A stretch of 63,727 nt of DNA, counting the filler, from Folioceros fuciformis (Eukaryota), in assembly GCA_049999805.1 (NCBI GenBank). It is 7 parts of 7 records of this genome, joined end to end, with 100 filler letters (N's around TTAATTAATTAA, not from the genome) between each part and the next. Parts side by side here need not be neighbours in the genome. Positions count along the whole stretch, not along the records: positions 21,834 to 28,801 come from JBNGIO010005414.1; 6 more parts are not named here. One strand, 5' to 3'. The position numbers and the translations under genes are program-made. Shown here in pieces: positions 6,705 through 48,532 of the stretch (position 1 is the first letter of the stretch; each line of letters opens with the position of its first letter). The notes under the pieces are model-generated. The model was not told the origin of the DNA, did no database searches, and was given only the letters and a program-made list of their open reading frames with translations.

Positions 6705-6975
6705 TGTTACAGAATGGATAATGTGCCCGTAACCCTGCCGACTAGCTAGTTACGTAGACTGTAATTAATAGTATTTAATAATTATGAACGGGTGTGCCTC
6801 TTTGGAAGAGACACCCAGTGACACTATTTAAGACACATTTTGTATACACTTTTTAGAGACTAACACAAAATATCTCTCTGAGCATTGCATCTTGATCATG
6901 TTGGATTAGATGCAATCCTAATCATGCTAGATTAGATGCAATCCTACTTCTAGGATTTTAACATGGTATCAGAGC
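6705..6975 (+). mobile_element. 259-bp LTR (family B) followed by a tRNA-Met(i) PBS
   Basis: TGTTA...TAACA (6705-6963), then TGGTATCAGAGC (6964-6975). Further copies start at 8352 and 53924. It is also preceded by the purine tract GAGTGGGGAAG. Confidence 0.88.
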
Positions 6976-15084: not shown

Positions 15085-15184
15085 NNNNNNNNNNNNNNNN
15101 NNNNNNNNNNNNNNNNNNNNNNNNNNNNTTAATTAATTAANNNNNNNNNNNNNNNNNNNNNNNNNNNNNNNNNNNNNNNNNNNN
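15085..15184. other. Artificial contig linker N44-TTAATTAATTAA-N44 (also 21734-21833, 28802-28901, 36648-36747, 40571-40670, 48305-48404)
   Basis: The same 12-mer, with stops in all six frames, is centred in 100-nt spacers. Plain N100 gaps start at 9726, 23702, 32156, 38978 and 45920. Confidence 0.98.
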
Positions 15185-17616: not shown

Positions 17617-20600
17617 TGTAGGGTTATTAAAGCCTAATGTGCTTAGACTAATGTGTTTAGCCTAAGATTAGTGTCTAGTTAAGTATCATTTGTTTAGATT
17701 AGCTTAAGCTAATCTATAAGAAGCTTCTTGCGCAGCTTCTTGTGCGCTTCTTGTGAAGCTTCCTTGGAAGCTCTTCAAGAGGGTATAAATACCCTCTTGA
17801 GCTCCCTTGCAATTGAAAGACAAAGTGTGAGACCTCTCTGTCTCCTCTCCTCCTTGCTTCCTTCTCTCCTCCTTCACCATGTGGCTCCCTTAACGATCCT
17901 TCAACTGGTATCAGAGCTTGGATGATGGAGCAAGATGGTGATGTCTGTAGGTGTTGCGGACAAGGTGCGCAAGGCCGTGAGGAAGGCATCGGAGTGAGCA
18001 GGGGCCATGTGCGGCAACCCTCTGCCCGAGGTGCAGAAGTCTCCAGCCCCGCCGTGCTCAAGCTCGGGCCGCGGCAGCGCGGGGTGCCTCCGCAAGATGG
18101 GGCGCCAAGGGCGTGGGGTGTCGGGGGCGCCAGGGCACCAGGTCCTTCTGACTGCCAGCCCGCGGGGCATGCCAGCTGCGCCAGGCAAGGGTGCGGGCTC
18201 CCAACCACCAGGTGGTGTGGCCGGATCTAGAGCCGCGGGCGGCCAGATCTTGATTGGAGGACGAGACACTCTACTTGTGAGCGACTGAATTCCGGCTGCA
18301 GATGGTCGGATTAGTCTCCCAACGCTAGGCGAGCCAAAATCAGACTTGGGCCCGTCGTTTTGGCCTGAGTTGTGGACAGACTCACGTGATGGTTTAAGGT
18401 CTACAAGTAGTGTCAACCAATGCGGAACAAGGCGTGAGGGTAACTTTCAGAATCTACATTACATTCGATTGTTTCTAACTAAGCTTTATTTAATTTGCAT
18501 CGATTTTGAATGATGACGTCCTCAGAAAACATTATTTTCAATATCTACAAGTTAGATGGTACTAACTTCCCGTTCTGGAAAGAATAAGTGTTAATGCTCT
18601 AGTACAGAAAAAGCAGATCAAGCCCGTAAAGTTGCTAAGTGTGAAACTTGTTAGCATGACTCAGGATGAGTGGCATGATCTAGATGAGCTTGCTAGATCT
18701 ACCATCATGCTAACATTGTCGAAGTCAGTCTACTTCAATGTGAAAGACAAGTCCACAAGTTATGAGCTATGGCAGAAGTTGTGTGACCTGTATGAGAAGC
18801 AAAGTGCGGCTTCTCAGGTGTACTGGTTGAAACAGCTGGTGGACTTGAAGATGAAGGAAGGGACGAGGATGTCCGATCATTTGAATGAGTTCAATATCAT
18901 TTTCAACCAGCTCTCATCTTAAAGGTAGCTCGTTCCCAGATTCCGAGAGAGCTATGTTTCCGTTGGTCACATTCCCATAGAGTTGGGACACCTTTTGTAC
19001 AGCTCTGAGTAATTTCGCTGCTGCCAGTGGTCTCACCATTGTAAATGTAGAAGGTAGCCTGTTAACTGAAGAGGTGAACAAAAAGAATATGGAACCTTTA
19101 AGAGTTCTAATGCCCTCATGGTGAGAGGAAGGTCCACTTCAAAGGGAAAGTACAAGGAGCGAAGTCTTTCCCGTGGCAAATCTCGTAGTCGTAACAATGT
19201 TGAGTGTTACCATTGTCACAAAAAGGGTCACATCAGAAGGGATTGCGAGAAGTTCAAGAAGGACAAAGAAAAGGAGAAGAAGCAGAACGACACCAAGGCA
19301 AGTCCAAGTATTAAGCTTGACGAGGTGAATTCTGTTGACGATGGAGATGTTCTTATCTTTTCTTCCTTCGATTCTGCACAAATGACAGGCATGGATAATC
19401 ACTTATTCTCTAATTAGATAATTGACTCTGGAGCATCTTTCCATGTTACTCTGCATAGGGAGTGGTTTAGCACCTATGATGCTATTAGGAAAGGATGTGT
19501 TCGGCTTGGAAATAACTACGCATGTGAGATTGCAAGCGTTGGTGATGTGCAGCTGAAGTTTGACAACGGATCTTCATTCATATTGAAGGATGTCAGGCAT
19601 GTTCCGAAGTTGACAAAACGCATTATTAGCGCAGGGCAGTTGGATGACGCTAGTTACCACTGTTGGTTTGGGGATAATTCTTGGAAGATCTCCAAAGGTT
19701 CTCTTATGTTAGCTCGTGGATCGAAGTGTGGCACTTTGTAGTCACTTCAGGTAACCACTGTCAAGCATCATGTGATTTGTGTAACGGAACAGCCAAATGT
19801 TTCCTTGTGGCATTGCCGGTTAGGACATATGTCTCAAAAAGGAATAAAGATCTTATCTCGTTTTGGTTACGTCCCTGCTTTTGACTTCTCCGATTTCTCC
19901 ATGTGTGAGCACTGTTTGTATGGGAAACAGACAAAATCACCACATGCAGCAAGAGATAAGCACAAAAGCAAACCTCTTGAATTGGTTCACAGTGACGTTT
20001 GTGGACCCATGCCCACTGTATCATTAGGCGGTGCATCCTATTTTGTCACTTTCATACATGATTTCTCACGCAAGGTGTGGGTTCATCCTTTGAGGAAAAA
20101 GGATGATGTTCTGACAGTGTTTCAGAAATTTGTCACCCTTGTGGAGAATCAGTCCTCCCTTTGACTTAAGTGTTTGAGGACATACAATGATGGAGAGTAC
20201 GTTTTGAAGGCTTTCTAGTCATTATATGATTCCAAGGGAATCTAGAGAGAATTGATTGCCCCGTATACTCCTCCCCAGAATGGTGTGGCTGAACGGATGA
20301 ACAAGACCATCCAGGAGAGGATGCATAGTTTGATGTCAAACTATGGATTGCCTAACGGATTTTGTGCAAAAGCAGTGTCTACTACGGTGCATCTTATTAA
20401 CTGATCTCCTAATAAGGCTGTGGATGTGTAGGTTCCAAAGGAGATGTGGTCTGGAAAGAAGCCGTCATACAAGCATCTACGAGTGTTTGGCTGCGAGGCA
20501 TACTGCCATGTTCCAAAGGAGTTCGGGACAAGTTGGCACCCAAGTCTAGAAAATGTAGGATTTCACGTCCTCCTGATAAGTATGTTGCATCTCTTGATTA

Positions 20601-21690: not shown

Positions 21691-21833
21691 CGGAAGCGAG
21701 TTTTTGTATAATAAACATTGATTAAACAAATGANNNNNNNNNNNNNNNNNNNNNNNNNNNNNNNNNNNNNNNNNNNNTTAATTAATTAANNNNNNNNNNN
21801 NNNNNNNNNNNNNNNNNNNNNNNNNNNNNNNNN

Positions 21834-24800
21834 AACGTCCTTTTTACCTGACTCCAATGTTCTGGTGTTGGGTTCTCCAGAAACTGTGACTCAAGGCTGA
21901 CAGAAAAAGCGATATCTGGTCTCGACACATTTGCAAGATAAATCAAATTCCCACTGCATGCCTATACGACGTTCTGGCCATATCCTCTGCCTCTTCTGGT
22001 GTAAGCGGGTTCTGGCCTCGTGCAAGCTTAACACCAGTCGCCAGGGGAGTTGCTGACCCATTTGCGTTTTCTAGATTAAATTTCTTTAAGCTGTCTCTCA
22101 CATACTTATGCTGACAAATGGTCAGCCTTCTGACCTTTCTGTCTCTGGCAATCTCAACTCCCAGGCACCACGTGAGCTCACCCAATTCTGTCATTTCGAA
22201 CTCCTTTCTCAAGAGTGCTTTCACCTTCGGCAGCAAGCTATGCCTACCCTTGGTCGCAGCCAGGACCAAGTCATCCACGTATAGCAATAAAATTAAGACT
22301 GAATCTCCCTCAGTCATCACATGCAGGCCAGGGTCTGCTGTACCCTGCCTGAACCCCAACTGCTTCAGGTAAGAATCTATGCGTTGATTCCAGGCACGTG
22401 GACTCTGCTTTAACCCATACAGGGTTTTCACCAACTTACACACCAAGTGCTCTGTTCCAGACTTGATGTAGCCCTCCGGCTGCTCCATGTACAAGTCTTC
22501 CTCCAATTTCCCATGCAAGAAGGCAGTTTTTACGTCCATCTGTTCCAAGTCGAGGTCAAGATGTGCTGCAAGTGCCAGCACCATTCTCAGGGTTGTGAAC
22601 TTTACAACTGGGGCAAAAGTATCATTGAAGTCCACTCCTGGGATCTGTGAAAAACCTCGAGCTACCAAGCGTGCTTTGTACCTCTCAATACTGCCATCTG
22701 CCTTCATTTTTCTTTTAAAGACCCACTTGCATGAGATGGGCTTGCGTTCCTTCGGCAGCTCCACAAGAAGCCAGGTACCATTCTGAAATAATTGATGCAT
22801 ATTCATCATCTACGGCTTTCTTCCATTGCTTAGCTTCAGGTCCTGAATACGCTTGTGTCAGTGAAACAGGCTCGGACCCATCTGTAGTGTCTGCCAGCAG
22901 AGCCTGGATGTACGCATTTGAATGCTGAGTGTCTCCCTCTATTTCAACGATGCTGCTTGACACATCTCCTGCAGGCTGGCCAGTCAAGGCGGGTTGTTCA
23001 GAGGTCGCAGGTACACCCTCAGTTCTGGTCCTCAACGTTTTTGTTTTGACCTTATTCACCCGCCAATCCTCCATCTCTAATGGAGGCTCTTTCCACGGTT
23101 TATTTCTCTCTCTGAGATTATAACGACCTCGTGTTTCAGCTGCAGGAACCTCCTCAACAATGGGTATGTCACCATCTACTTCAGCATGCATATCAACTTC
23201 AACTTGCTGGTTCAACCAGAGTCATCCACAGGAGTGCTGTCAAGTTCACCATCGTCAGGTTCAGGTGCGAAAGTTTCAGCATCTTCTTCAAAGTAAGAAA
23301 CTTCCACATCTGTTAGTTCAGCATTCTCTCCTGCAGGGAACCAATCCAAGACATCTTCGTCCTCATTGTCAGGCTGATCCACTACCCCACCATCAGGATT
23401 GGGGCTGGAATCAGGTAAGACTGTACTTGATGGTTTTAACAAGCTCTTTTCATCAAAGATAACACTCCTTGCATGACTCACGACCCGTGACACAGGGTCA
23501 TATAGTTTGTATGCTTTTATACCATCAGTATATCCAATAAAAATTGACTTCTGAGCTCTGTCATGCAGCTTGGTCCTACGCTTGGGTTTGGGAACGAAGG
23601 CATACGCAGGTGAACCAAAGATCCTTAAATGTTGAACAGCAGGCTTCCGACCCCACCATGCCTCGAACGGAGTAGTACCAGGTAACACTCGAGTTGGCAG
23701 CNNNNNNNNNNNNNNNNNNNNNNNNNNNNNNNNNNNNNNNNNNNNNNNNNNNNNNNNNNNNNNNNNNNNNNNNNNNNNNNNNNNNNNNNNNNNNNNNNNN
23801 NAGTGTTGATTGCCTCACCCCAGTAATGCCGAGGCAGACGTGCTTGCTTGAGCAGGGCTCGTGCTGTCTCCTGAAGGAGCTGGTTCTTCTTCTCAGCTAC
23901 GCCATTGAGTTGTGCAGTGTACGGGACAGTTAGCTGTCGTTGGATGCCAAGACTCCGGCAATAAGCAATGAACTCTCCTGAGGTATATTCCCCACCATTG
24001 TCGGATCAAAGGCATCTCAGACTGCGACCATGATGGCGCTCTCCTAACTGCAAATACTCCTTGAAATGTTGCAGGGTCTCACTTTTATGCTTAAGAATAT
24101 ACAGCATGCAATAACGAGTGCAGTCATCAATGAAGGTCAGGAAAAATGAGCCACCACCAATCGAAGGTACAGAGATAGGACCACAAATGTCCGAGTGCAC
24201 AAGCTCCAAGGGGACTGCAGCCCGATGTGCTCCTGATTTATCAAAAGGTAACTCATGATGCTTGCCATAAATGCAAGCCTCGCACAGGGGCAAATCCCCC
24301 ACTTGTCCTGGAATCCCATCTGAATATAATGTGCTGTTGGTCATGGTCAGGAGTTTGTTTCCATGCGGATGCCCACAGCGTAGATGCCAGACAGTTGCAA
24401 CTTCTTCTGGAGACAAGTTCCCACTAATGCCTGCAACGTGCAGCTCAGGTAATCTGCTCCCCGCCAGGCTAAGTTGATAAGGGTAGCCTTCCGCAACAGC
24501 AACTCGCGGATCTCTACTCTCAACTATCGTGCATTTATCATCCTTGAACAGGACTTGCATGGGTAGGTCAGATGTCAACTTGCGTACTGACAGCAAGTTT
24601 TTCGTGACTGCAGGTACGTGCAGAACATCTGTCAAATCCAAACTTCTGCCATGATGCAACTTCAAAGTTACTTTACCAGTCCCAAGAATAGGTAAAGTGC
24701 TCTCATCTCCCAACATTACTGACTGCGCTTCATTGTACGGTGTATAGTCACTGAAGCATGATTTGTTATGGCAGATGTGCGCAGAGGCACCAGAATCAAT

Positions 24801-27227
24801 AAACCAGTCTGGAGTTCGAATCCAGACGTGGTGAGGCACACTGTCAGAATAACTTGTGCAGGTTTCTTCTTCGGTGCATTCACAGCATGTGTCTCAGGCA
24901 CCCCAGCAGCACCCTCCTTCCTAGGCTCTCCAGCCTTCTTTTTACGGCAATCACGTGCCCAATGACCAGGTATTCCGCACCAGTTGCAATTACCTGTCCT
25001 CTTTGGATTGTTAGAGCTCTGTCCAGGTCCAGTTGACCTGCCCCCTCGACTAGCATTCCATGAACCTCCTCTACCTCTTCTAAAGGGTTTACCCCTACCA
25101 GCAAACAGGGCTTGCTGACCCTGTGTCTGCTGCCTTCCAGGTCTGGAGGCCAGCCGTGTGGCTTCCTCCTGCAGCATGGCTCCAACAACACCGTTAAATG
25201 TCATGGACTCTGCATCTAAATTCAAGGCCTTTGAGATTCTTGCTTCAACCTTTGCCATGGCCTGCTAGCCAGTGACAAACGGACCATAACTTGGAGGTAA
25301 CGAGCTCAGCAGCCTGCATGCTGCCTCATAATCCGTGACTTTCACTCCTGTAGAGCTCAACTTAGCACGTGCAATGCAAAATCTTGCAATGTAGTGCTCA
25401 ACCAACTCACCCTCTGTCATGCGCAGGCTGTGATATCGTGCAGACGCAGACATAGATGCAGCCATGTCGTGGGAGGCAAACATCATTGCCAGATGATCCC
25501 ACATGTCTTTTGCTGTGTCACCTGGACCATCAGAGGCTTGCCTTAGCATCTCAGGGGCCAGGCCTGACCTGATGAGATTCCTGGCTTTGATGTCTCCAAG
25601 TGCCCACATTGGATAATCTGCTGAAGTTATTGCAGGTTTTTCTACATCTCCATTCACCACTGCCCACAGGTTCTTTTCCTCTAGAGCTCCTTGCATTCTC
25701 ATTACCCATATATCATACTCGCTGCCAGTGACCAGTCTGTCCTTCTCTTTAAATCCTCCGCTGGTTAGTGCCTGCAGGGCCGAGAGCATGTCCTCTCTCG
25801 CTTTGTCTTCATCACCCATTTTTAAGTTTCTATACCACTTATAGTCTTCGTGTGAATAATGTGTGTTCACCGATGCACGATCAGAAGCAGCATCAACTTG
25901 AGTGTTCAGGTCATCATTATCCTCACTGAAGTCGTAGAGTCCTACCTCCTGAGCTAGTCTCCTTAACTATTCAGGTGTTGTATACGAAATCTCCTGATCA
26001 CTCATAGATCAGCAGCTCCCATCATGAGCTGAATCAACTTGCTTTGACTGACACACTGCACAAGTTGGATGACCCTGCTTGGACTAACTCGTCTGAGCGG
26101 CTCTCTCGTTTTCTTGCCAATTTGGCTTCATGATAACAAATATTTTCAAGTCAATTTGTTTCAAGTGTTCTTCTAACCTGGCAATATTGTCTGTCAAGGT
26201 ATCTAAGGTGGTGAGAATGTGCTGGGTACGACAGAGGGCTGTACTCTTAATGTTATCAAGTCTTTGGGTCAAGTGGTGGACAACAACTGCAAGGGATTCG
26301 TTTGATTCTCTGGCAGGTTGAGGAAAACGTTGTGGTGTGATAGGATCTCTCAAAACAAACTGGTTTCTATTCTGGAGTGACCTACGATGGGCATGGATAC
26401 TAGGATTGGCTATTGCTAGCTCAGGAATTCTATTTAAAAGATCTCTCCAATCAGGACGACCTTGTCTACTAGGGGAAATATTGGTGACCTCATACGGGGG
26501 GACAGGATGGTAAGTTCGTGACTCCGCTCCTCTGTTCCTCCTACGACGGTATGCCATGCAACATTCCCCACCGGTTCTAACTGCTTACTGGCTGTGCAGG
26601 TCCAGGATCAGCGCTAGACGCGCCTTGCAAACTTCTTGTTGAGCATGAATCTTGCACGCTTTCGAACAGAGAAGCACCAGCGCTTGGGATACAGGGCCAT
26701 GACCTCCTCTCTAGCCAGGACTGATTCAACTGCCCGCTCAATCAGAAATGCAAGCTCTGGGTTCAAGAAAGGGCGCAAGAACATCATCCATTCAACCCAC
26801 TGCTACAGATTCAGGTAGCCCATGGCAGCAGATTTCCAGGGTTGCTAACTCGTGTGCAGGACGTTGGTGCGATCCATGGGTTTTCTGTCAAGGTGACAGG
26901 AAGCATTTGTGCCTTGCTAGAGGGCGTAGGGGTTGCAGCAACGCCTGGCCTGCTCTGATACCATGATGTTTTTATAGAACGATAGATTGATTAACAGCGA
27001 GCACAAGGCATGAATATTCAGCAATAGCAGCACACTCGCGTGTGTGTGCGTGAGAGACATAGTTGTAGCGGTTAGTTAGTTCTTAGTACGTAACTATCTT
27101 GTAGTTGTAACTACCATGTAACCCTAACTTACTCGAAACGAAAAACTATATTAATATATTTATTTATATGTTTTATACCTAATATATATAAACCTAATTA
27201 CGAGGTGCGAACCTAATCTATCCAACA
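21834..27227 (-). mobile_element. Near-complete Ty1/Copia with extra upstream ORF(s): 5' LTR, PBS, ORF0, gag, PR, IN, RT
   Basis: LTR 27227-26964 (TGTTG..CATCA); PBS 26963-26952. Gag from ATG 26005 (FKEKDR..), CNWCGIPGHWARDC, WFIDSGAS, LVHSDICGP, YKARLVARGF, LYVDDL. Confidence 0.96.
26084..26557 (-). CDS. ORF0: intact 157-aa extra ORF between PBS and gag (basic N-terminus, coiled-coil C-terminus)
   Basis: ATG-initiated, same strand as gag, ending about 80 nt before the gag ATG. Homologous to 39241-39981, which holds the same position in another Copia. Confidence 0.7.
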   Translation of the reverse strand: MAYRRRRNRGAESRTYHPVPPYEVTNISPSRQGRPDWRDLLNRIPELAIANPSIHAHRRSLQNRNQFVLRDPITPQRFPQPARESNESLAVVVHHLTQRLDNIKSTALCRTQHILTTLDTLTDNIARLEEHLKQIDLKIFVIMKPNWQENERAAQTS

Positions 27228-27548
27228 ACTTTGACCCAAACCTAGTTCTGACCTGATAGGGGTTGTGTCCCATGGACACCACTGGGTGCCCTTACCAAAA
27301 TTGACCAACCTCTCAAGACTACCAAAATGGTCAGTGCCTCTCAACCCTCTCCCTCCTCTCTCAAATCATTCCATCCCTTCTCTCAGATCATTCCAGCAAC
27401 CCTTCAAACACACGTCTCGCCTCACCATTAATCTAGCTACTAATCTAACCTAATCTTTTAACCATTTCACCACAGGGTTCACTTAGAGATTCCCAAAAAG
27501 AGAAATCCTACCATTTTCCAAGGACCTATTCAGCATGTGGAGTCCACA
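27228..27548 (+). mobile_element. 3' end of a shorter relative of the 2648-6083 LTR
   Basis: Shares GGTTGTGTCCC..GGTGCCCTTACCAAAATTGACCAACCTCTCAAGACTACCAAAAT with 3766-3845, and the terminal ACCATTTT..GACCTAT..CATGTGG..TCCACA with 6042-6083. Confidence 0.8.
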
Positions 27549-28190
27549 AGAATCTTCCTCCAACGCCTATTTTACAGGCAAAAGATTCAGGGGTAGGGGC
27601 CATGGCATGCGAGGACAACCACATCCTCGTGGACTGGGCAATTATCAGGGTACTTACCATAGTAGAGGAAGAGGATACTACAATCCCCCTTGGAAACCTG
27701 TCTGCAGGTATTGTAAAATTCCAGGACATACCTATGAGGAATGTCGGAAACGATAAGCTGCAAACAACCCACAACGTCGACGTGAGCAGATAGGACAACT
27801 CGCCCTCACAATGGAAAGACATACAAGAGCATATTTAATACACACACCTCAATCATCCCAAGATCAGCTAGATCAACCAAGTTCCTCTAATCCAACAGCT
27901 TATGTGGCATCCTGCCTTGTAGCTCAAGGACATCACACATGGTACATTGACTCAGGTGCCTCCCAACACATGACACGGAACCTAGAATACTTCACAGAGA
28001 TCAACCCTACACAGCCACCTCAGTATGTTAGTCTAGGAGATGACTCCAGACACAAAATATAGGGTCATGGGTCCGTCAAAATTAACCTTAAAACAACATC
28101 TACCTTGCACATATCAAACGTTCTTCATGTACCAGGGCTTACAAAGAACCTCTTCTCAGTTAGAAAGGTAGATGAATCGGGCTGTTACGT
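27549..28190 (+). mobile_element. Ty1/Copia gag zinc knuckle and protease fragment
   Basis: RG-rich region, CRYCKIPGHTYEEC, WYIDSGASQHMT, VLHVPGLTKNLFSV. Confidence 0.92.
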
Positions 28191-29079
28191 ATGCTTCGGG
28201 GAGTTCGCTTTATGGTTATATGAGCAAACCTTGTACACTGCATCACTGAAACCCCGCAAGGGGAACTCCTTGCTACAGGAGCCTTACAAAACAACGACTT
28301 GTGTTACGGGGCAGCTTTGGATTCCGGCTTTGGGAAAATGGACGTTCTCTTCATGTTCGGATTCGCTACAAATACATGTGTGCGAGCAGTGCCAAGAAGG
28401 CAGTGGCTGCCCGCCTAACTACCCTACTTCTTGGGATTCTACTGGTATAGCAATTTTTAGTTATCCGGATATCCTATATACTGGCATTTATCTATTTAAT
28501 TAGTATCTGTTTAATTATTTCGTATCAGCTGGGTATTCCATGAGTGTTTCGTAGGGTTCTTGCTACCTGTTTCGTGGTAGCTTCGATTCCTCAGCGGATG
28601 ACTTGAGTGGCCTGCTCGTCATCACGTTTCATTCTTCCCCACTTGCTGGGGCCAGGTCCTCCTGGCCATCTGGAATCTGCTCGCGCAGACGGGGGAATTG
28701 TAGATAGAAATCCTCGGGTTCCCATGTTTAGGGTGAATCGGGCTCGCCCTCCCATGCAACCAGGAAGTCACGGATGTGTCGGTGCCGGAGGTGCCGTTCT
28801 CNNNNNNNNNNNNNNNNNNNNNNNNNNNNNNNNNNNNNNNNNNNNTTAATTAATTAANNNNNNNNNNNNNNNNNNNNNNNNNNNNNNNNNNNNNNNNNNN
28901 NACATAATATGGTGTCATTTGGAGTGCGTATGAAATTCAGTCCTCCGTCACCTTAAGTGGGAAAAACTGAAACTTATTCCCTTAATAGGAAATGTCTCCT
29001 TTACCTGAGAAAATATTATTATACTATTTATAAATAATATACCATCAATACATATATTAGCTAATTTTACCCTCCTATA

Positions 29080-36647: not shown

Positions 36648-36899
36648 NNNNNNNNNNNNNNNNNNNNNNNNNNNNNNNNNNNNNNNNNNNNTTAATTAAT
36701 TAANNNNNNNNNNNNNNNNNNNNNNNNNNNNNNNNNNNNNNNNNNNNCTATTTCCTGGTCAATTAACTTAATTAGCACAAAGAAAAATAGGAAAAATGAC
36801 CAAAAAATCAAGGAAAATTAGGAAAAATAAGTTGAAAAAGAAAACCAAACCATACCACTATTAACCCTTTTTCAACCAAAACAAACTACTACCCCAAAC

Positions 36900-38505
36900 T
36901 TTGGAGGTTCACACTCTGTCATATTCTTCAATAAAGCATCCATCTTTATTGAATCAAACCTGCAGATTTTGTTCAGCCACGTGTCCAACAAACAACAGGT
37001 TCTTTGTAATAGTTGGTACATGCAACACATCTTGCAGACTCTTTTGTTGACCATTCGGCATCCTAAGAGGAACAATTCCTATGTGTGTTATGTCATGTTG
37101 TGTGTCATCTCCTCTACACACATGACCATGGGGACCTGCATCCATCTTGTTAAACCACTCGCCATGCGGAGTCATGTGGTTTGATGCTCCTAAATCAATG
37201 TACCATCTCTCATCATTCTACCCATCCTGTTCAGAGAGATGTTGCATAGCAAACAACCTATCCTGGTCATTTCTAGCATTACTAGAGGAGGGATAGTTCC
37301 CATGCTGCCTTCCTTTTCCTCTCATGTCTGCTTGCTACTCATAGGAGTCCTTAGCAATATGACCAACCTTTCCAAAGTAGTAACACTCCTTATCTCTATT
37401 GGAATGGTCATGAGATTGAAAAGAACCATCTCTTCCTCTTGTGGCTCTACCTGCGCCTCTAAAACTTCTAGATCCTCTCTGGCCTTGCACATTTCCTCCA
37501 CTCCAATTGTCTTGCTGATTCTGTGTGTTCCGAGCATCACCCCATCCTCGGAATGAACCACGACCTCTGTGGCCTCTCCCACGCTGGTTAGAAAACAAAA
37601 CAGTGTCTCTCCCTTGAGACATACCTGAACCTGTGTTCAGACCAAGCTTAACTTCCTCATGCAACAACAAAGCAACCAATTCATCCCAACTTGGGGACTC
37701 AGCTCTCACAGAGATTGATGTGTCAAAGGACTTGTATTCCTTGCCAAGTCCGTTCAAAGTAACTGCAACCATGTCATCTTCCGTCACACTTGCACCGATT
37801 GTAGCAAGCTGATCAGCTATGGTTTTCACCTCTGTTGTATACACGAGTATGGATCTGCTACCTTGTGACAAGTTGTTGAACTGTTGCTTCAACTGGATTT
37901 TCCTAGCATGTGTGACATTCCCATAGTTCCTCATGAGTATGTCCCATGCATCCTTCGGAGACTCACATCCCGTGATCTGTATGACCATAGCATCTGAAAT
38001 ACTTAAGGAGAGCCAGTGTAACACTTTACATGCTCTCTTAGTCCAATGCTTGTGAGTAGTCTTTTGCTCCTGTGATGGAATATGATCCATCTCCGGTTCA
38101 CTCTCATCACCTGTGCGGAGGTCCCAATAGCCTCTACCTACCAAGAAGTTCTTCATCATGAACTTCCACAAAGCAAAATTCTTGTTATCCAATTCTCTCC
38201 CACAACCTAAGAGATATCGTCTGATCCCTGCACGTTAGCCATGATTCAGGCTCCTTTACACACCAACACTTGTCCTGCACCTCAGGTCAATTGCCTTCTC
38301 TTGCTTGCTGTGCCACCAAGTCCCCTGTGGACAGATTGTCAAAACACTTTCATGTGTCTTCCAACAGATGTTTTTAACAATCTTGAGTGCAACTCCCTGC
38401 ACTGCTGTAGAGCTCCAGCACTCCACAAGCCTCAATCGGATCTCAACAATTCCTGAATGTGCAACTGACTCTTCGCTAAGCAAAACCAGCCTTTGCTCAA
38501 GCTTT

Positions 38506-38549
<44 letters not shown>

Positions 38550-38709
38550 TCCTCCTTGCAAATCCTGGGCCTGCTGTGGCTTCCACGGCCTGGTTGCCTC
38601 CAGTAGTTGCTGCTCCTCCTAAGTCTCTCTCCCTCTCGCGCCTCTCATGCGCTCTTGCGCCTGTGGCACCTGTTGCAACTTCCTACGCCACCTACGCCGC
38701 TGCTCCTAA
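36900..38709 (-). mobile_element. Ty1/Copia leader, gag and protease fragment
   Basis: NFALWKF, TLNGLGKEY, a degenerate knuckle CYYFGKVGHIAKDS, WYIDLGASNHMT. An A41 run (38507-38547) lies in the leader. Confidence 0.92.
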
Positions 38710-40570
38710 TGATATATAGTGCTGATATATGATTAAAGGGTTATGCTTGATTTAAGATACGTTGAGTTATGGTTAAATAGTTTATGGTGTCGTTTCGTTA
38801 GGGTTACGACTCCAAGTGAAGAGCTACAACGTTTCACATTTTTTAGTTTAATTTGTGCTATATTTTATAGACACTTACTTCTTCTTTTCTAAGAGAACCA
38901 ATTATGTAAATATTTTAATGAAATTATTTTTTTTAATTGCATTTACTTATATTTCATCATGGTATCAGAGCCATGCTNNNNNNNNNNNNNNNNNNNNNNN
39001 NNNNNNNNNNNNNNNNNNNNNNNNNNNNNNNNNNNNNNNNNNNNNNNNNNNNNNNNNNNNNNNNNNNNNNNNNNNNNCTTGTTTTAGATTGATGAATTCA
39101 TACAGAGATTCTGCATAATCGGTAGATAATCTAGTGCACTTCCATGTGAATTGATATCAAGATCAATTCAATGGAGGCCCACTAGAGTAGCTGCCTGGCT
39201 GGCAGAATTATATATTAAAAATTAAATAAGAAAACAGACAATGCAGAGTTTCTGCATTTCATCATTTAGAAAATTCGCTGGTAATTATGGCCACCAGCAC
39301 AGGCGTTTGTGTCCTGCTGAAAGGATCCCTATGTATGATAGGGTGAATGTCGTTGATGAATTATCAGTTGTATCCCAACTTCATCAACATGTCCTACAGT
39401 GGATTCAAACAAATAAGCTACAATTAATTTCGATAGCTGATTTCAAAATAGCTTTTAATACTTTAATTGCTGCTATTTATCCACTGGAGACTAATTTGTT
39501 GTTTGATCTACCTTCACAAAGCTTACCAAATTTAGCAAGAGTGTGTGCACAGATAGGCACTGTGGGAAATAATCTCTGTGATTCTTCTTTTACCAAATCT
39601 ACCACACATATAGGTGTTAATACAATAATTGAACACCTTAAGACAAACAACAAAATTGTGGACAGACGCTGTAATCAAATACAAGGACATTTATCTACAA
39701 CAAGTGTGGACTTATAGGATCTGAAGGAACAAATTGCTCACGTGGACTGCAAGCTGGTTACGCTCTTGAGATCCAAGCAACCTATTATTTCGCCCTTCAG
39801 AGCTACATCCTGTAAGCATACCAATAAGATAAAACGTAATCGACAATTCTGCTCACCTGATTTATTTACATCTTGTTCAACAAGTACTTACAATGAAGGT
39901 GACAAGAGGAGCTATAAGAATGCTTCTAAAAGAGCAGTGTGGGGTCGAATCTTACAACATCAAAGACAACATGCATTGTGATTAGGAGTGTATGGATGGG
40001 GAAGATAGTGATCTGGAAGGGGCAGAGCCTAATTCTGTACCACCTACACCCAACATGGGTGATACAATCTCATCATCAACTCTTAGTACGGAAACTTTCA
40101 AAGAAAAGGATAGATTTAATGGTACTGACTTTGATATTTGGCTTATCCGGATGGAGGGTGTCCTTGAGATGAGAGGACTCCTGAAATATGCAACCAGAGT
40201 GGTAAAGTTCCCTAGCAACGGAACTGTAGCAGGAGCAGATTGGTTAGCTAAAGACAACGTAGCCAAATACCTCATACGTAGTGGTCTAACATCTAACATG
40301 TTGAGGCAGACTGTAGGGGTAAAGACTTCAGCTGAGATCTGGACACACCTCAAGGAACTCTACGCAGGGCAGAATATGGTCAGTGTTATGACTGCTTTAC
40401 GAAATTTTCAGAATTTGAGAATGAGAGAAGGTGATTCAGTGGAGAAGCACGTGAATACCTTCAGAATCCTATCCTCAAGACTGAAAGGTGCTTCAAAAGT
40501 CAGTATGACTGATGATGAACTGCTGATGAGGTTCATGCTTTCCCTTCCTGAATCCTGGTCTCATTTCGTG
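38710..40570 (+). mobile_element. Ty1/Copia 5' part with extra upstream ORF: LTR, PBS, ORF0, gag
   Basis: LTR TGAT..ATCA at 38710-38959; PBS TGGTATCAGAGC at 38960; then an N gap. Gag FKEKDRFNGTDFDIW..LRMREGDSVEKH..MLSLPESWSHFV. Confidence 0.9.
39241..39981 (+). pseudogene. ORF0 homolog upstream of gag (one internal TAG at 39715)
   Basis: ORFs 39241-39717 and 39742-39981 share one frame. IPMYDRVNV and RRCNQIQGHLSTTSVDL*DLKEQIAHVDCKLVTLLR align with the 26084 ORF. Confidence 0.65.
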
Positions 40571-40670
40571 NNNNNNNNNNNNNNNNNNNNNNNNNNNNNN
40601 NNNNNNNNNNNNNNTTAATTAATTAANNNNNNNNNNNNNNNNNNNNNNNNNNNNNNNNNNNNNNNNNNNN

Positions 40671-42950: not shown

Positions 42951-43489
42951 CCTATTGAATCTTGTGAACGAAAAAAAAATTTGGAACCCCCATTTTGAGC
43001 GACGGAATGAGCAGGTTGTGATTCTTTTCGTGAAGGGACAGGCGAATCGGCTTAGTAAGCGAGTAAGGCCAGGGTGTTTATACCCAAAGTCCACCTTGGG
43101 CTTCGGGGTTTGGGGTGTACTAGAGACCGGGACAAGGAGGGGGAATGAGCGAGTGCCTCCTTGACCCTCGGGTCATTGAGAACATTAAGGTAGGCAAAAG
43201 TAAGGGCCCAAGGTGACGGGGCGACGGTAGCCGGCAGGGCAACCGTCGCCGGAGGGACTACTGGAGGTAGTCCGATGGGGCGTAAAGGAGAAAAAGCAGG
43301 CAGGGCATAAAAACCCTAGAGAAAGGGGAGCTCTGTCCAGCATCCGAAAGCGCCAGGACGACGGGAGAGACGGTGCAGGGCGTGAAGGGAGGAGGCCAGG
43401 CGCGGCCTGAACTGATCCCTCGAGCAGCAGCCTCTGGACAGGAGGGGGGACCTACTGTCCCCCGAATCGACCTACTCCTGTAGCCCAAT

Positions 43490-44900
43490 ATGGAGCACTG
43501 GAGGGTCAGGGCAGGAAAGTTGGTGGCAGAGCTAGGTTTGAACTTTATGACCCAGAAGTGGAATCATGCAGCACCCAAGATGGTCAGGGAGTGCGCCCTG
43601 AGGCTGATAGAGCCTGTACGCGAAGAAGGGATCAGAGGCAGACCCCAGGAATGGAACCTGGAGTTGATCAGGAGGGTCTACGGGCGCAACCAACAGGAGG
43701 AAGGGGGACTGGTGCTGGAGTCCCTGAAGAAGCGTGGCGGAACGGGAGCCGAGGAAACGCTGCTCAAGGCAGGCACGAAAAAGGAAGCGAACGGGTGGCT
43801 GGTGCGCGACATGGCAAGTCCTGAGCTGATGGGATTGGCCAGGTGGTTTCTGAGCTTCTTCCAGGTACGCAAACAGGATTATCTGTCCGACCAGATGCTC
43901 CTGTTTGTGCATGAAGTAGTGAAGGACACCAGGATCGACTGGGGGAGGATTTTATACGCCCGGATGGATGAGGAGAGGCAGAACCTGATCCGACCCAATC
44001 CTGAACCTTCTATGATTTCCCCGTTTCTAATCCATGTGTACAGTTACGCTAACCTAGTCACCGAGCTAGAAAGGCTGGCCTCGCTGCACCTGTGGAAGCT
44101 AGTTCGTGATGTGAAGTGGAAGCCCGCTGAGCCAGCAAAGGCTGCCTCCAACAGTTGGGAAGCTGACAGTGGGAATAGCTCGTAGGAGGAAACCCCAATC
44201 AAGACCAGGAAGAGGACAGCCCCACAAAAGAAGGCTCCTACCAGGAGGAAAAGGTTCAGAGGACAAAGTGTGAGCATGGGGGCTGATCAGGAGGAAGGGG
44301 GGACAGCCCTGGAGCAGACAGGTCAGCAGGAGGTAGAACGAGAACCAGCTGTCTAGGGAATCAAGAACCGAAGGTTGGAGGAGCAAGGTCAGGGTGGGAC
44401 AAGACCCGAGGAGCCACCGGATCAGGTGATGGTAGCTGACACAGTTTCCTCCAGACTGGAGGATAAGTTAGGGCACACTTCAGCACAGGAGGGTTCCTCA
44501 AGGTGGAAAGACATTTTCAGGTGCAGGCCTCAGAGAGACAGGTTGCAGGTAGGGGACCTGGACAAGTTGCGAGAATTCCTGGGCAGACAAATCACGGCGA
44601 GAGGAAGGGGCACCGGAGGGGTGCAGGAGGTGGACCTACCCGGGCTGACTGCTGCCATGGTGTAGGCCCAAGCAGACCTCCTGGATCAGGCTGCTAGGGC
44701 CCTGACCTGGTTAAGTGTACAAGCAGAGCGAGAGGCCGAGGCTTGGGGGAAGGAGGAGAAGGCTCGTGAGCGAGAGGCTGAAGCAAGGAGGCAACTGGCG
44801 GAGTCAGAGACGGCGCGACAACTGCAGGAGGAGAAGCAGTGGGTCCTTGACAGGGAGAAGGCTCAAGCCAAGGAAGAGGCGCGCGAGGCGAGGGCCTCTC
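43490..44900 (+). pseudogene. Retrotransposon accessory-type ORF, copy 1 (globular domain, basic linker, coiled coil)
   Basis: MEHWR..NHAAP..RKQDYLS..IDWGRILY..SMISPFLIHVY; clearly homologous to 46415-47150. Confidence 0.65.
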
Positions 44901-46414: not shown

Positions 46415-47150
46415 ATGGATCACTGGAGGGCCAAGGCCGGAGGGTTGGTGGAGGAGCTAGGCCTTGAGTTCATGGCCCAACGGCGGAACCACGCAGCACC
46501 TGTTTTGGTGCGGGAGTGTACACAATGATAGAGGAGTCTAGCAAACGAAGAAGGCATCAAGGGGAATCCTCAGGACTATAGTGTCGACTTAGTCTGAACA
46601 GTGTATGGGCGCAGCCAGGAGGAAGCGCAACACCACGGCAGCAGCAGCAGCGCTGTTCAAGGTAGGGATAGGGAGAGAAGCCAATGGCTAGTTGGCACGA
46701 GAGATGGCGACTGCCCAACTCATGGGGCTGACTAGGTGGCTCCTATGCTTCCTACAGAACAGGAAGCAGGACTACCTGTCCAACCACATGCTTCCGTTTC
46801 TGAATGAGGTGGTCAAGGGCAATCGGGTTGATTGGGGGAAGATCCTGTACGACCGGTTGAATGAGGAGAGACAAACCCTGACCTCTCCCACTCCCCGCCC
46901 GTCGATGATCTCGCCATTTCTTGTGTATTTGTATTGTCACGCTAACAGTTTACCCGAGATAGAAGTCGTTGCCTCTTTGCACATGTGGAAGCCAGTCAGG
47001 GAAGTTAAGTGGAAGCCGGAGGAGCCAAGGGAGGAGGTTGAATCCAGCAGCTGGGAATCAAGAGCCACTAGGAGCTTAGAGGAGGAAGCCACGACCAGCA
47101 GGAAGCGGAAGGCAAGAGCAGGGCGGAAGACCCCTTCAAAGAAGAGGAAG
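46415..47150 (+). pseudogene. Retrotransposon accessory-type ORF, copy 2
   Basis: MDHWRAKAGGLVEELGL..RKQDYLS..VDWGKILY..SMISPFLVYLY; stops and frameshift. Confidence 0.65.
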
Positions 47151-47645
47151 GTGGGTGGCCGATTGTACCAAAATTGGAACATTGACCCGAAATTCTATGT
47201 TCCACAAAGAGCAACAATTCGAAGCACCTAAAGTATCTCTCTTTATATGTATGGAAAAATTCTGCAATCTCATGGCCTCACATCAAACTGGACGACAAGA
47301 ACTTGAAGCTCAATGACTAGTTGTTAACCTAGGTTTGGACTATGCCAAAGAGTTCAAGTCATACAGGGTGAAGACCATGAAGAGGAAGGCAAATGAGGCT
47401 TCTTTATCTTTGAAGTCTAAAATGAAGAGATTAAGGAGTGAGGGATAGTTTTTTTAGTTGCTCCATCGAAACACCAGTTGTAAAATTGTGAGCCTACCAG
47501 CTTTGAGCCAATGAGCCTGTGAGTTGCGAGGTGCCTGTGAGCTTCTTGTAAGTTTGGCAAGAGTCGTGGGTCAATCTTTGAGTGCCGTTGAAAAATTCAA
47601 CCCCACGAGCTTCCTAACGTCCATTACCGATACTATGATCTACAT

Positions 47646-47859: not shown

Positions 47860-48532
47860 TACATGGTGTGTAGGATTTCAAATGACCCAGCCACCTCACT
47901 TGAAATCATTACCAAGGCATGCAACATGATGGCAAGTATGTTGTGGAAGACTCAGAAGATGTTGTGTGCGCATGAATCCAACAGTATACCAGTGTGGTTT
48001 TTGCAAGAGTGCGGACTTTAGTTTTGGAAAGCTCACTTGTAACGTGAGCGTGTAGCACGGTCATCAATGCATTTTTTCACACACATGTAAAATGAATAGA
48101 TTAGAATAGAACTTGGAATTAAAAATAATGAAGCAATAACGTGTTGATATCAAGAAGGCTGCCTATGTGTGCCTCACGACTTGGCAAGCATACGACAGTG
48201 TGCGTTGGAACTTTATTGTAACGTGACACTTGATCGATGAGAACCACAATTCAAGCATATATCTAAATATGATAAGTTAAGCATATGGCAGCTTAACCCG
48301 TAACNNNNNNNNNNNNNNNNNNNNNNNNNNNNNNNNNNNNNNNNNNNNTTAATTAATTAANNNNNNNNNNNNNNNNNNNNNNNNNNNNNNNNNNNNNNNN
48401 NNNNGCCCCAAGACCAGATAGTCCCATCGTCTGCTATCAAACAGCCGCCCCATGAACACTTAAGGAGCAACTGATGAACACTGGCCAGTTTCCATTTGGG
48501 AGGATGTGGACAGGTGTACACTCGTCCGTTTG

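Follow-up and report, generated by a model that had tools for sequence, protein, structure and literature searches.

In the genome of Folioceros fuciformis (assembly GCA_049999805.1), two Ty1/Copia retrotransposons each carry a long sense open reading frame (ORF) in the leader, between the primer-binding site and gag, which raises the question of whether this frame is a gene in its own right or the front part of gag. Both elements, hereafter element A (21834-27227, minus strand) and element B (38710-40570, plus strand), lie in the window, that is, the whole stretch of 63,727 nucleotides (nt) analysed here, in which seven parts of the genome are joined end to end. The two leader ORFs, ORF0-A and ORF0-B, were taken in the original prediction as a separate gene conserved in a Copia lineage. 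Our analysis indicates that the feature is real but mis-delimited, and that it most probably belongs to a Copia Gag whose N-terminus is extended by a long, leader-encoded stretch, represented here by two decayed copies. The layout itself was described correctly, with an ORF in sense orientation that follows the primer-binding site and precedes gag in a leader of about 1 kb in both elements; the coordinates match, and the leaders measure ~1.1 kb in A (from primer-binding site to gag) and ~1.0 kb in B, the latter counting a 100-N gap of unknown true size.

ORF0-A, as delimited by ORF reading, occupies 26084..26557 on the minus strand and comprises 157 codons followed by a TAG (26086-26084). From its ATG at 26557 to the gag ATG at 25819 there are 738 nt, or 246 codons in one frame, interrupted by three stops before the gag Met (TAG 26086-26084, TGA 26011-26009 and TAG 25969-25967) and by a fourth inside gag (TAG 25267-25265). 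The first stop is followed in frame by a continuation of 24 codons (26012..26083, minus strand), in which the aligned pieces of other copies have no gaps and which ends at the TGA (26009..26011, minus strand), one codon ahead of an in-frame ATG (26005-26003); the stretch from this ATG to the conserved gag Met (25820..26005, minus strand) includes the TAG at 25969-25967. The canonical N-terminal part of gag (25265..25819, minus strand; Retrotran_gag_2, PF14223, E 1.4e-25) then runs to the fourth stop. Copia gag normally starts a few residues ahead of the DUF4219/Retrotran_gag_2 domain, which in the read-through frame of element A begins at residue 277-288.

Other copies of family A were examined through the contigs of four public sequencing runs from three coded organisms, aligned to 25265-27227 at a likeness of at least 80%; per-run figures are given for the runs X1, X3 and X4, and in one run, guessed to be RNA, the match was confined to gag, in a contig less than 90% alike. 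The variant positions reported are those among 40 listed of 470 differences, absence from which proves nothing. At position 26086, within the stop of ORF0-A, another letter stands at a depth of 143.4 of 153.6 in X1, 300.9 of 300.9 in X3 and 188.1 of 188.1 in X4, and the codon becomes a sense codon; the same holds at position 25968 (109.2 of 139.1, 150.6 of 150.6 and 170.3 of 170.3, respectively). At 25268, the consensus of loose ends, from three records in each of X1, X3 and X4, gives a sense codon in place of the TAG 25267-25265 of the window. Each of these three stops is set apart from the other copies by a C/T or G/A transition, the kind of change to be expected in a plant repeat that has been silenced, and three of the four stops in the frame common to ORF0-A and gag belong to the window copy or to a minority of copies. 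Since ORF0-A lies in the gag frame and its own stop is copy-specific, it stands closer to an N-terminal extension of Gag than to a separate gene. The separateness first assigned to ORF0 is thus not borne out in A, where the TAG at 26086-26084 is copy-specific, and holds at face value in the B copy, in which the two frames differ; and as to an in-frame fusion with gag, named in the original prediction as a finding that would speak against it, the gag frame is shared in A and at most the TGA at 26011-26009 separates the two. We therefore tentatively favor, with a confidence somewhat short of even, that coding in family A starts close to, or at, ATG 26557 and runs without a change of frame into gag, adding ~246 residues to the N-terminus of Gag.

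The distribution of gaps among the copies points to the same start. Among the listed pieces of X1, X3 and X4, from which all gap counts are taken, 17 of 17 within 25265-26582 are gap-free, with 580 substitutions; one gap-free piece of 862 nt, with ~84% identity, covers gag, the linker and the distal half of ORF0-A, and the five pieces lying wholly inside 26084-26582 show 103 substitutions and no gaps. By comparison, six of the seven listed pieces extending above 26582 are gapped, with 34 gaps and 164 substitutions. The border between the gap-free and the gap-rich part falls within ~25 nt of ATG 26557, and a 126-nt stretch of the head of ORF0-A that is too diverged for alignment is unchanged in length. 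A gap-free block reaching from near ATG 26557 into gag indicates that family A keeps length and frame from the start of ORF0. Across 26584..25265, the three frames contain 4, 31 and 38 stops.

The leader upstream of this border (26558..26951, minus strand) is non-coding and contains nine upstream ATGs, one of which opens a 57-codon upstream ORF in another frame (26614-26787, minus strand), with eight more ATGs besides; as the other copies are rich in insertions and deletions at 26614-26787, the region of this small ORF is probably non-coding as well.

Chance open frames in non-coding leaders, an explanation that would agree with the lack of homologues, of a Pfam family and of visible selection on residues, appear extremely improbable and were already disfavored by ORF length. 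When the leaders were resampled with the same dinucleotide make-up, the observed length was reached in 14 of 5000 cases for A and in none of 5000 for B, and the stops per sense frame (1, 11 and 14 in the leader of A; 2, 12 and 26 in that of B) are fewest in the ORF0 frames. The absence of gaps among 103 substitutions inside ORF0-A, against 34 gaps with 164 substitutions upstream, is likewise not what chance frames would give. The leader ORFs are genuine coding sequence of a Ty1/Copia family, longer than chance allows.

At the level of residues the picture is different. Among the listed substitutions in ORF0-A, only two of eight are synonymous (expected fraction 0.31, P 0.76), which weighs against the proposed extension, whereas in the linker, from the end of ORF0-A to the gag Met, four of six visible changes are synonymous (expected 0.28, P ~0.06); four of the five listed changes in 25820..26005 other than that at 25968 are synonymous, as are seven of 15 in the gag of element A. 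The expected fractions are about 0.26-0.31 across the parts, and the sample, consisting of substitutions in the listed rows, is very small. The residues of ORF0-A show no sign of purifying selection in the few visible changes, so that the protein cannot be called a selected one on these counts, as had been proposed, and a ratio of nonsynonymous to synonymous rates (dN/dS) of about 1 remains compatible with two synonymous changes in eight.

Several further observations speak against an uninterrupted extension and suit a second account, the main rival, in which the leader carries a separate upstream gene of ~182 codons in A (to TGA 26011-26009) and ~246 codons in B, and gag, which begins immediately beyond it (in A at ATG 26005, after three bases; in B at ATG 39992, after ten), is translated by reinitiation, leaky scanning, occasional read-through of the TGA, or from a spliced RNA. 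The remaining stop of A stands one codon before an in-frame ATG, as a two-ORF layout would have it. No listed difference covers TGA 26011-26009, and rows near it at which all X3 and X4 contigs differ are listed; because comparable rows beside the TGA are listed and the TGA itself is not, there is a weak hint that some contigs keep it, and this stop may be shared by other copies. In element B, ORF0-B comprises 158 codons to TAG 39715-39717 by ORF reading (39241..39717, plus strand), and beyond this stop its frame is open to TGA 39979-39981, 246 codons in all (39241..39981, plus strand), ending 10 nt ahead of the gag ATG. It is offset by +1 from the gag frame of element B, which is also open upstream from ATG 39893, save for a TAG at 39983-39985. 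Taken at face value, element B therefore holds two ORFs. Between the TGA and the ATG at which translation could restart there are 3 nt in A and 10 nt in B. Both elements retain the gag Met, with favorable initiation contexts (A, aaaaATGg; B, gtgtATGg), which fits either a separate start of gag or a second, shorter isoform. Counting against the extension as well are the nine ATGs that precede ATG 26557, together with the reliance of all comparisons among copies on short public-run contigs and partly listed tables. Sense extra ORFs in the 5' region are, moreover, a recognised class in plant long terminal repeat (LTR) retrotransposons, according to the parts of the survey by Neumann et al. consulted (PMC6317226).

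Even so, a separate upstream gene appears fairly unlikely. The TAG that gave ORF0-A its end is not native, and since the three other stops in the frame are copy-specific, the fourth may be so too. For a separate gene, sharing the frame of gag has a one-in-three chance, whereas it is certain under fusion. The stop is placed differently with respect to the gag Met, 64 codons upstream in A and four in B. RNA structure downstream of the TGA is no better than chance (z -1.53; 13 of 200 shuffles fold as well). The five-mer TGGGA, a reinitiation motif of caliciviruses, is present once at the junction of A, 6 nt ahead of the TGA, and absent near that of B, so that no such motif is common to both, and its 153 occurrences in the window, against 172 expected, correspond to chance frequency. 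That the leader holds a true accessory gene, encoding an Arg-rich head and a coiled coil, with its stop abutting the start of gag (UGA-UCU-AUG in A) and gag coupled to it by reinitiation or read-through, is in our estimation quite unlikely.

Whether the two elements share the extension depends on how ORF0-A relates to ORF0-B. Their gags are homologous, with 36.5% identity over 167 aa (E 1.6e-28) and the common motifs FKEKDR, DIW and RM.G.LE, just as originally described, and are mutually closest within the window. The leader proteins, which had been thought to align as well, do not do so beyond shuffled controls: BLASTP of ORF0-A against ORF0-B gives E 3.1, and the Smith-Waterman score of 40 is equalled in 135 of 2000 shuffles and, when shuffling in blocks preserves the local composition, in 74-90 of 1000. 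This best local score belongs to the C-terminal stretch pointed out originally. A likeness that had also been claimed for the N-terminal extensions of the gags (LRRLAQE/IRMLLKE) lies at chance, being reached in 1519 of 2000 and 997 of 2000 shuffles in the two candidate frames of B. At the DNA level, A and B show no similarity apart from 17 nt at the primer-binding site. A colinear chain spanning all of ORF0-A and ORF0-B, scored with length-independent gap costs that were picked post hoc, is reached in only 3-4 of 1000 trials with full shuffling and in 3-25 of 1000 with block shuffling. A frameshift-tolerant alignment of the A protein with the B DNA needed lax penalties to connect ORF0 with gag and was given no weight.

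These comparisons leave room for a third account, namely that the leader ORFs of A and B are unrelated, each specific to its family and translated, now or formerly, without conserved function (for example a captured fragment, an ORF of recent origin or a filler that evolves fast), and that the similar layout is a coincidence or a convergence. The BLASTP and Smith-Waterman results, the chance-level linker regions, the restriction of DNA similarity to the primer-binding site, an uninformative structural model of ORF0-B and the low share of synonymous changes in ORF0-A are all in line with it, as is the distribution of Copia extra ORFs over 45 mutually dissimilar groups whose function is questioned in the consulted parts of the survey (PMC6317226). 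We nevertheless consider it distinctly improbable, given that the gags of A and B are each other's closest relatives in the window, that the ORF0 ATG and the conserved gag Met are almost equally far apart in both (246 codons in A and 250.3 in B), that the best local match ends 41 codons ahead of a gag-frame ATG in both elements, that the colinear chain, with long gaps made cheap, outscores 975-997 of 1000 shuffles, and that the freedom from insertions and deletions in family A argues for constraint. On the protein alignments, a marginal homology of ORF0-A and ORF0-B is possible. Of the gene that had been called conserved in the lineage, what stands is the length and frame kept within family A; the homology between A and B is marginal.

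With regard to the protein itself, an Arg-rich N-terminus had been anticipated correctly, and the coiled coil anticipated with it agrees with a predicted long helix of heptad pattern. The first 84 residues of ORF0-A contain 16 Arg and 11 Pro and have a predicted local distance difference test score (pLDDT) below 58 in the AlphaFold2 model of ORF0-A alone, in which residues 85-156 form one long helix (pLDDT 88-98) with hydrophobic residues recurring in two registers four positions apart, a heptad pattern. ORF0-A is thus predicted to consist of an Arg-rich disordered head and a helix of ~70 residues. The corresponding model of ORF0-B has a mean pLDDT of 36 and is uninformative.

Protein searches yielded no relative of ORF0, fused or free, another point that weighs against the proposed extension. 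Pfam returned no family for ORF0-A, and for ORF0-B gave just two matches (E 0.06 and 0.09), both of which fall well short of the curated cut-offs. No relative was found for ORF0-A or for ORF0-B in a word-index protein search at similar lengths, nor for ORF0-A with phmmer against 1.84 billion representatives; the read-through of ORF0, linker and gag, with stops as X, had no relative among longer proteins only, which is weak evidence. Metagenome and viral contigs scanned with ORF0 plus the linker gave no confirmed relatives. Against the PDB, the best phmmer match of ORF0-A has E 0.67, and Foldseek, a structural check proposed at the outset, returned no match for its model. By language-model features, the nearest Atlas clusters to ORF0-A are bornavirus P24, at 0.86, and a paramyxovirus phosphoprotein, at 0.79; neither reaches the 0.9 from which such a value counts as more than a lead.

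Bringing these features together under the favored reading, a Gag N-terminal extension, the particle protein of family A would consist of an Arg-rich disordered head, a heptad helix of ~70 residues and a linker, placed ahead of the Copia capsid-like domain and the CCHC knuckle, and the stops seen in the window would reflect decay of a silenced copy. We speculate that the Arg-rich head adds nucleic-acid binding or nuclear targeting to the particle protein and that the helix, judging from its heptad pattern, adds self-association. Ordinary Gag may still start at the conserved gag Met, in which case long and short isoforms of Gag would be made side by side. Element B would have the same layout with nearly the same length, its one stop and its +1 offset being explicable by one small insertion or deletion.

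It is worth comparing this arrangement with extra coding sequences known from other elements. In murine leukaemia virus, glyco-Gag is a leader-encoded extension in the gag frame, made as a long isoform beside the Gag that starts at an internal AUG; its extension begins at a CUG, has ~88 residues and sends Gag to the secretory path. The likeness to ORF0-A is an analogy of layout only, with no secretory-path feature seen in the extension. LINE-1 ORF1p and the phosphoproteins of negative-strand RNA viruses also combine a basic, disordered head with a long coiled-coil helix behind it; ORF0-A resembles them in composition only, with no match in sequence or fold. Among Ty3/Gypsy elements, ORF1 of Ogre is an upstream sense ORF of unknown function before gag, separate and much larger. 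ORF0 of rice Retrosat2, as far as the consulted text describes it, has the same position and likewise no known function, and differs from ORF0-A and ORF0-B in belonging to another superfamily and in being a separate and much larger ORF (PMC3485330); by Pfam, neither Ogre ORF1 nor Retrosat2 ORF0 has a sequence match with the two leader ORFs. The env-like ORF of SIRE (class eORF-3'F) resembles ORF0 as an extra Copia ORF that diverges fast between families, in the survey's terms (PMC6317226), and differs in lying 3' of pol instead of in the leader.

The closest category is the class eORF-5'F defined in the same survey, which in its consulted parts reports extra ORFs (eORFs) of all four kinds in 582 Ty1/Copia elements (Neumann et al. 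2019, PMC6317226); the view that 5' extra ORFs are not a feature of Copia was accordingly too strong. Extra ORFs both upstream and downstream of gag-pol are also treated by Vicient and Casacuberta (2020, PMC7264820; consulted in part). Like the members of eORF-5'F, ORF0 is read in sense and placed after the 5' LTR and ahead of the polyprotein; it has no conserved domain and is highly divergent between families. The differences are that ORF0 has 157-246 codons (157 in A, or 182 to the TGA; 158 or 246 in B), below the criterion of at least 250 codons, and that ORF0-A shares the gag frame, with two of the three intervening stops absent from nearly all other copies. By the criteria given in the survey text, eORFs fused to the polyprotein in some copies were discarded, and the same text groups the Copia eORFs into 45 dissimilar groups and doubts that many eORFs have a function; the leader ORF fits the grey zone of fused or doubtful eORFs so delimited (PMC6317226). 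A literature search for a Copia ORF0 or an N-terminal extension of Gag, which did not cover the per-lineage eORF figures and supplements, returned only Ty3/Gypsy Retrosat2 and unrelated papers, and the literature searched holds no description of a second cistron abutting gag in a plant Copia element.

The assignment of both elements to Copia agrees with their domains, a PF14223 gag in each and the Copia domain order in A. Element A is a Ty1/Copia element with gag, CCHC, integrase and then RVT_2: by domain search, gag is followed on the minus strand by a CCHC knuckle (zf-CCHC, 24716-25258), by Pol_BBD, gag_pre-integrs and rve (24006-24716) and by RVT_2 (21943-22809, E 1.9e-75). This downstream part (21943..25258, minus strand) is broken by frameshifts, by a 100-N gap at 23702-23801 and by the contig end at 21834. 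The putative 5' LTR of A (26964..27227, minus strand) has 264 bp, runs from TG to CA, and 26964 is the exact starting point of contigs in three runs; 21834-28801 contains no direct repeats, and hence no second LTR on this contig to confirm the boundaries. Directly after the LTR ending in CA follows the primer-binding site TGGTATCAGAGC (26952..26963, minus strand), which we take to pair with the 3' end of initiator tRNA-Met and which has four matches in the window against 0.36 expected. Element B is likewise Ty1/Copia, with gag (39992..40570, plus strand; Retrotran_gag_2, PF14223, E 3.4e-25) as its sole domain because the contig ends there and truncates it; its putative 5' LTR (38710-38959, plus strand; TG...CA) is directly followed by TGGTATCAGAGC at 38960-38971 (plus strand). 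As for lineage, whole tRNA-Met is not the primer type given in the consulted text of the survey for Osser, Bryco, Bianca and TAR (PMC6317226).

The leader of element B also holds an imperfect palindrome of ~75 nt, 76% self-complementary, at 39121-39195, directly past the 100-N gap. Immediately upstream of its LTR lies a run of ~41 A (38507-38547), which may represent either a simple repeat or the tail of a different retroposed sequence. A 274-aa gag-like ORF of a different element (37335-38159, minus strand), which the gag of A does not match at E <=1e-3, adjoins element B. The other Copia-type primer-binding sites of the window are at 6964-6975 and 17906-17917, both on the plus strand; in the element at 17906, the ~650 nt of leader ahead of gag (18566-18922) hold no sense ORF of this kind, which shows that the Copia elements of this genome do not all have a long leader ORF. 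Two related ORFs on different contigs (43484-44185 and 46692-47231, both plus strand) have the motifs RKQDYLS, DWG.ILY and MISPFL in common and, by these motifs, appear to be a repeated protein-coding family of unknown kind.

The contigs of the window are chained by six identical linkers of 44 N, TTAATTAATTAA and 44 N (15085-15184, 21734-21833, 28802-28901, 36648-36747, 40571-40670 and 48305-48404), and some contigs contain additional 100-N gaps; elements adjacent in the window are therefore not necessarily adjacent in the genome. Element A lies on the contig at 21834-28801 and element B on that at 36748-40570, the ends of which truncate both, and sequence comparison found no further copy of either elsewhere in the window.

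On either reading, the significance of the leader ORF is confined to the transposon biology of one plant group, the sequences being without known relatives. Decay of one copy can mimic a separate gene, a pitfall that the REXdb survey, in its consulted parts, filtered against (PMC6317226). If the TGA at 26011-26009 is native, family A would be a case, from a plant, of a retrotransposon RNA with two cistrons whose stop and start abut. If, on the other hand, the extension is real, the particles of this family would be built from a Gag with a disordered basic arm and a helix of ~70 residues, an unusual design for a Copia capsid.

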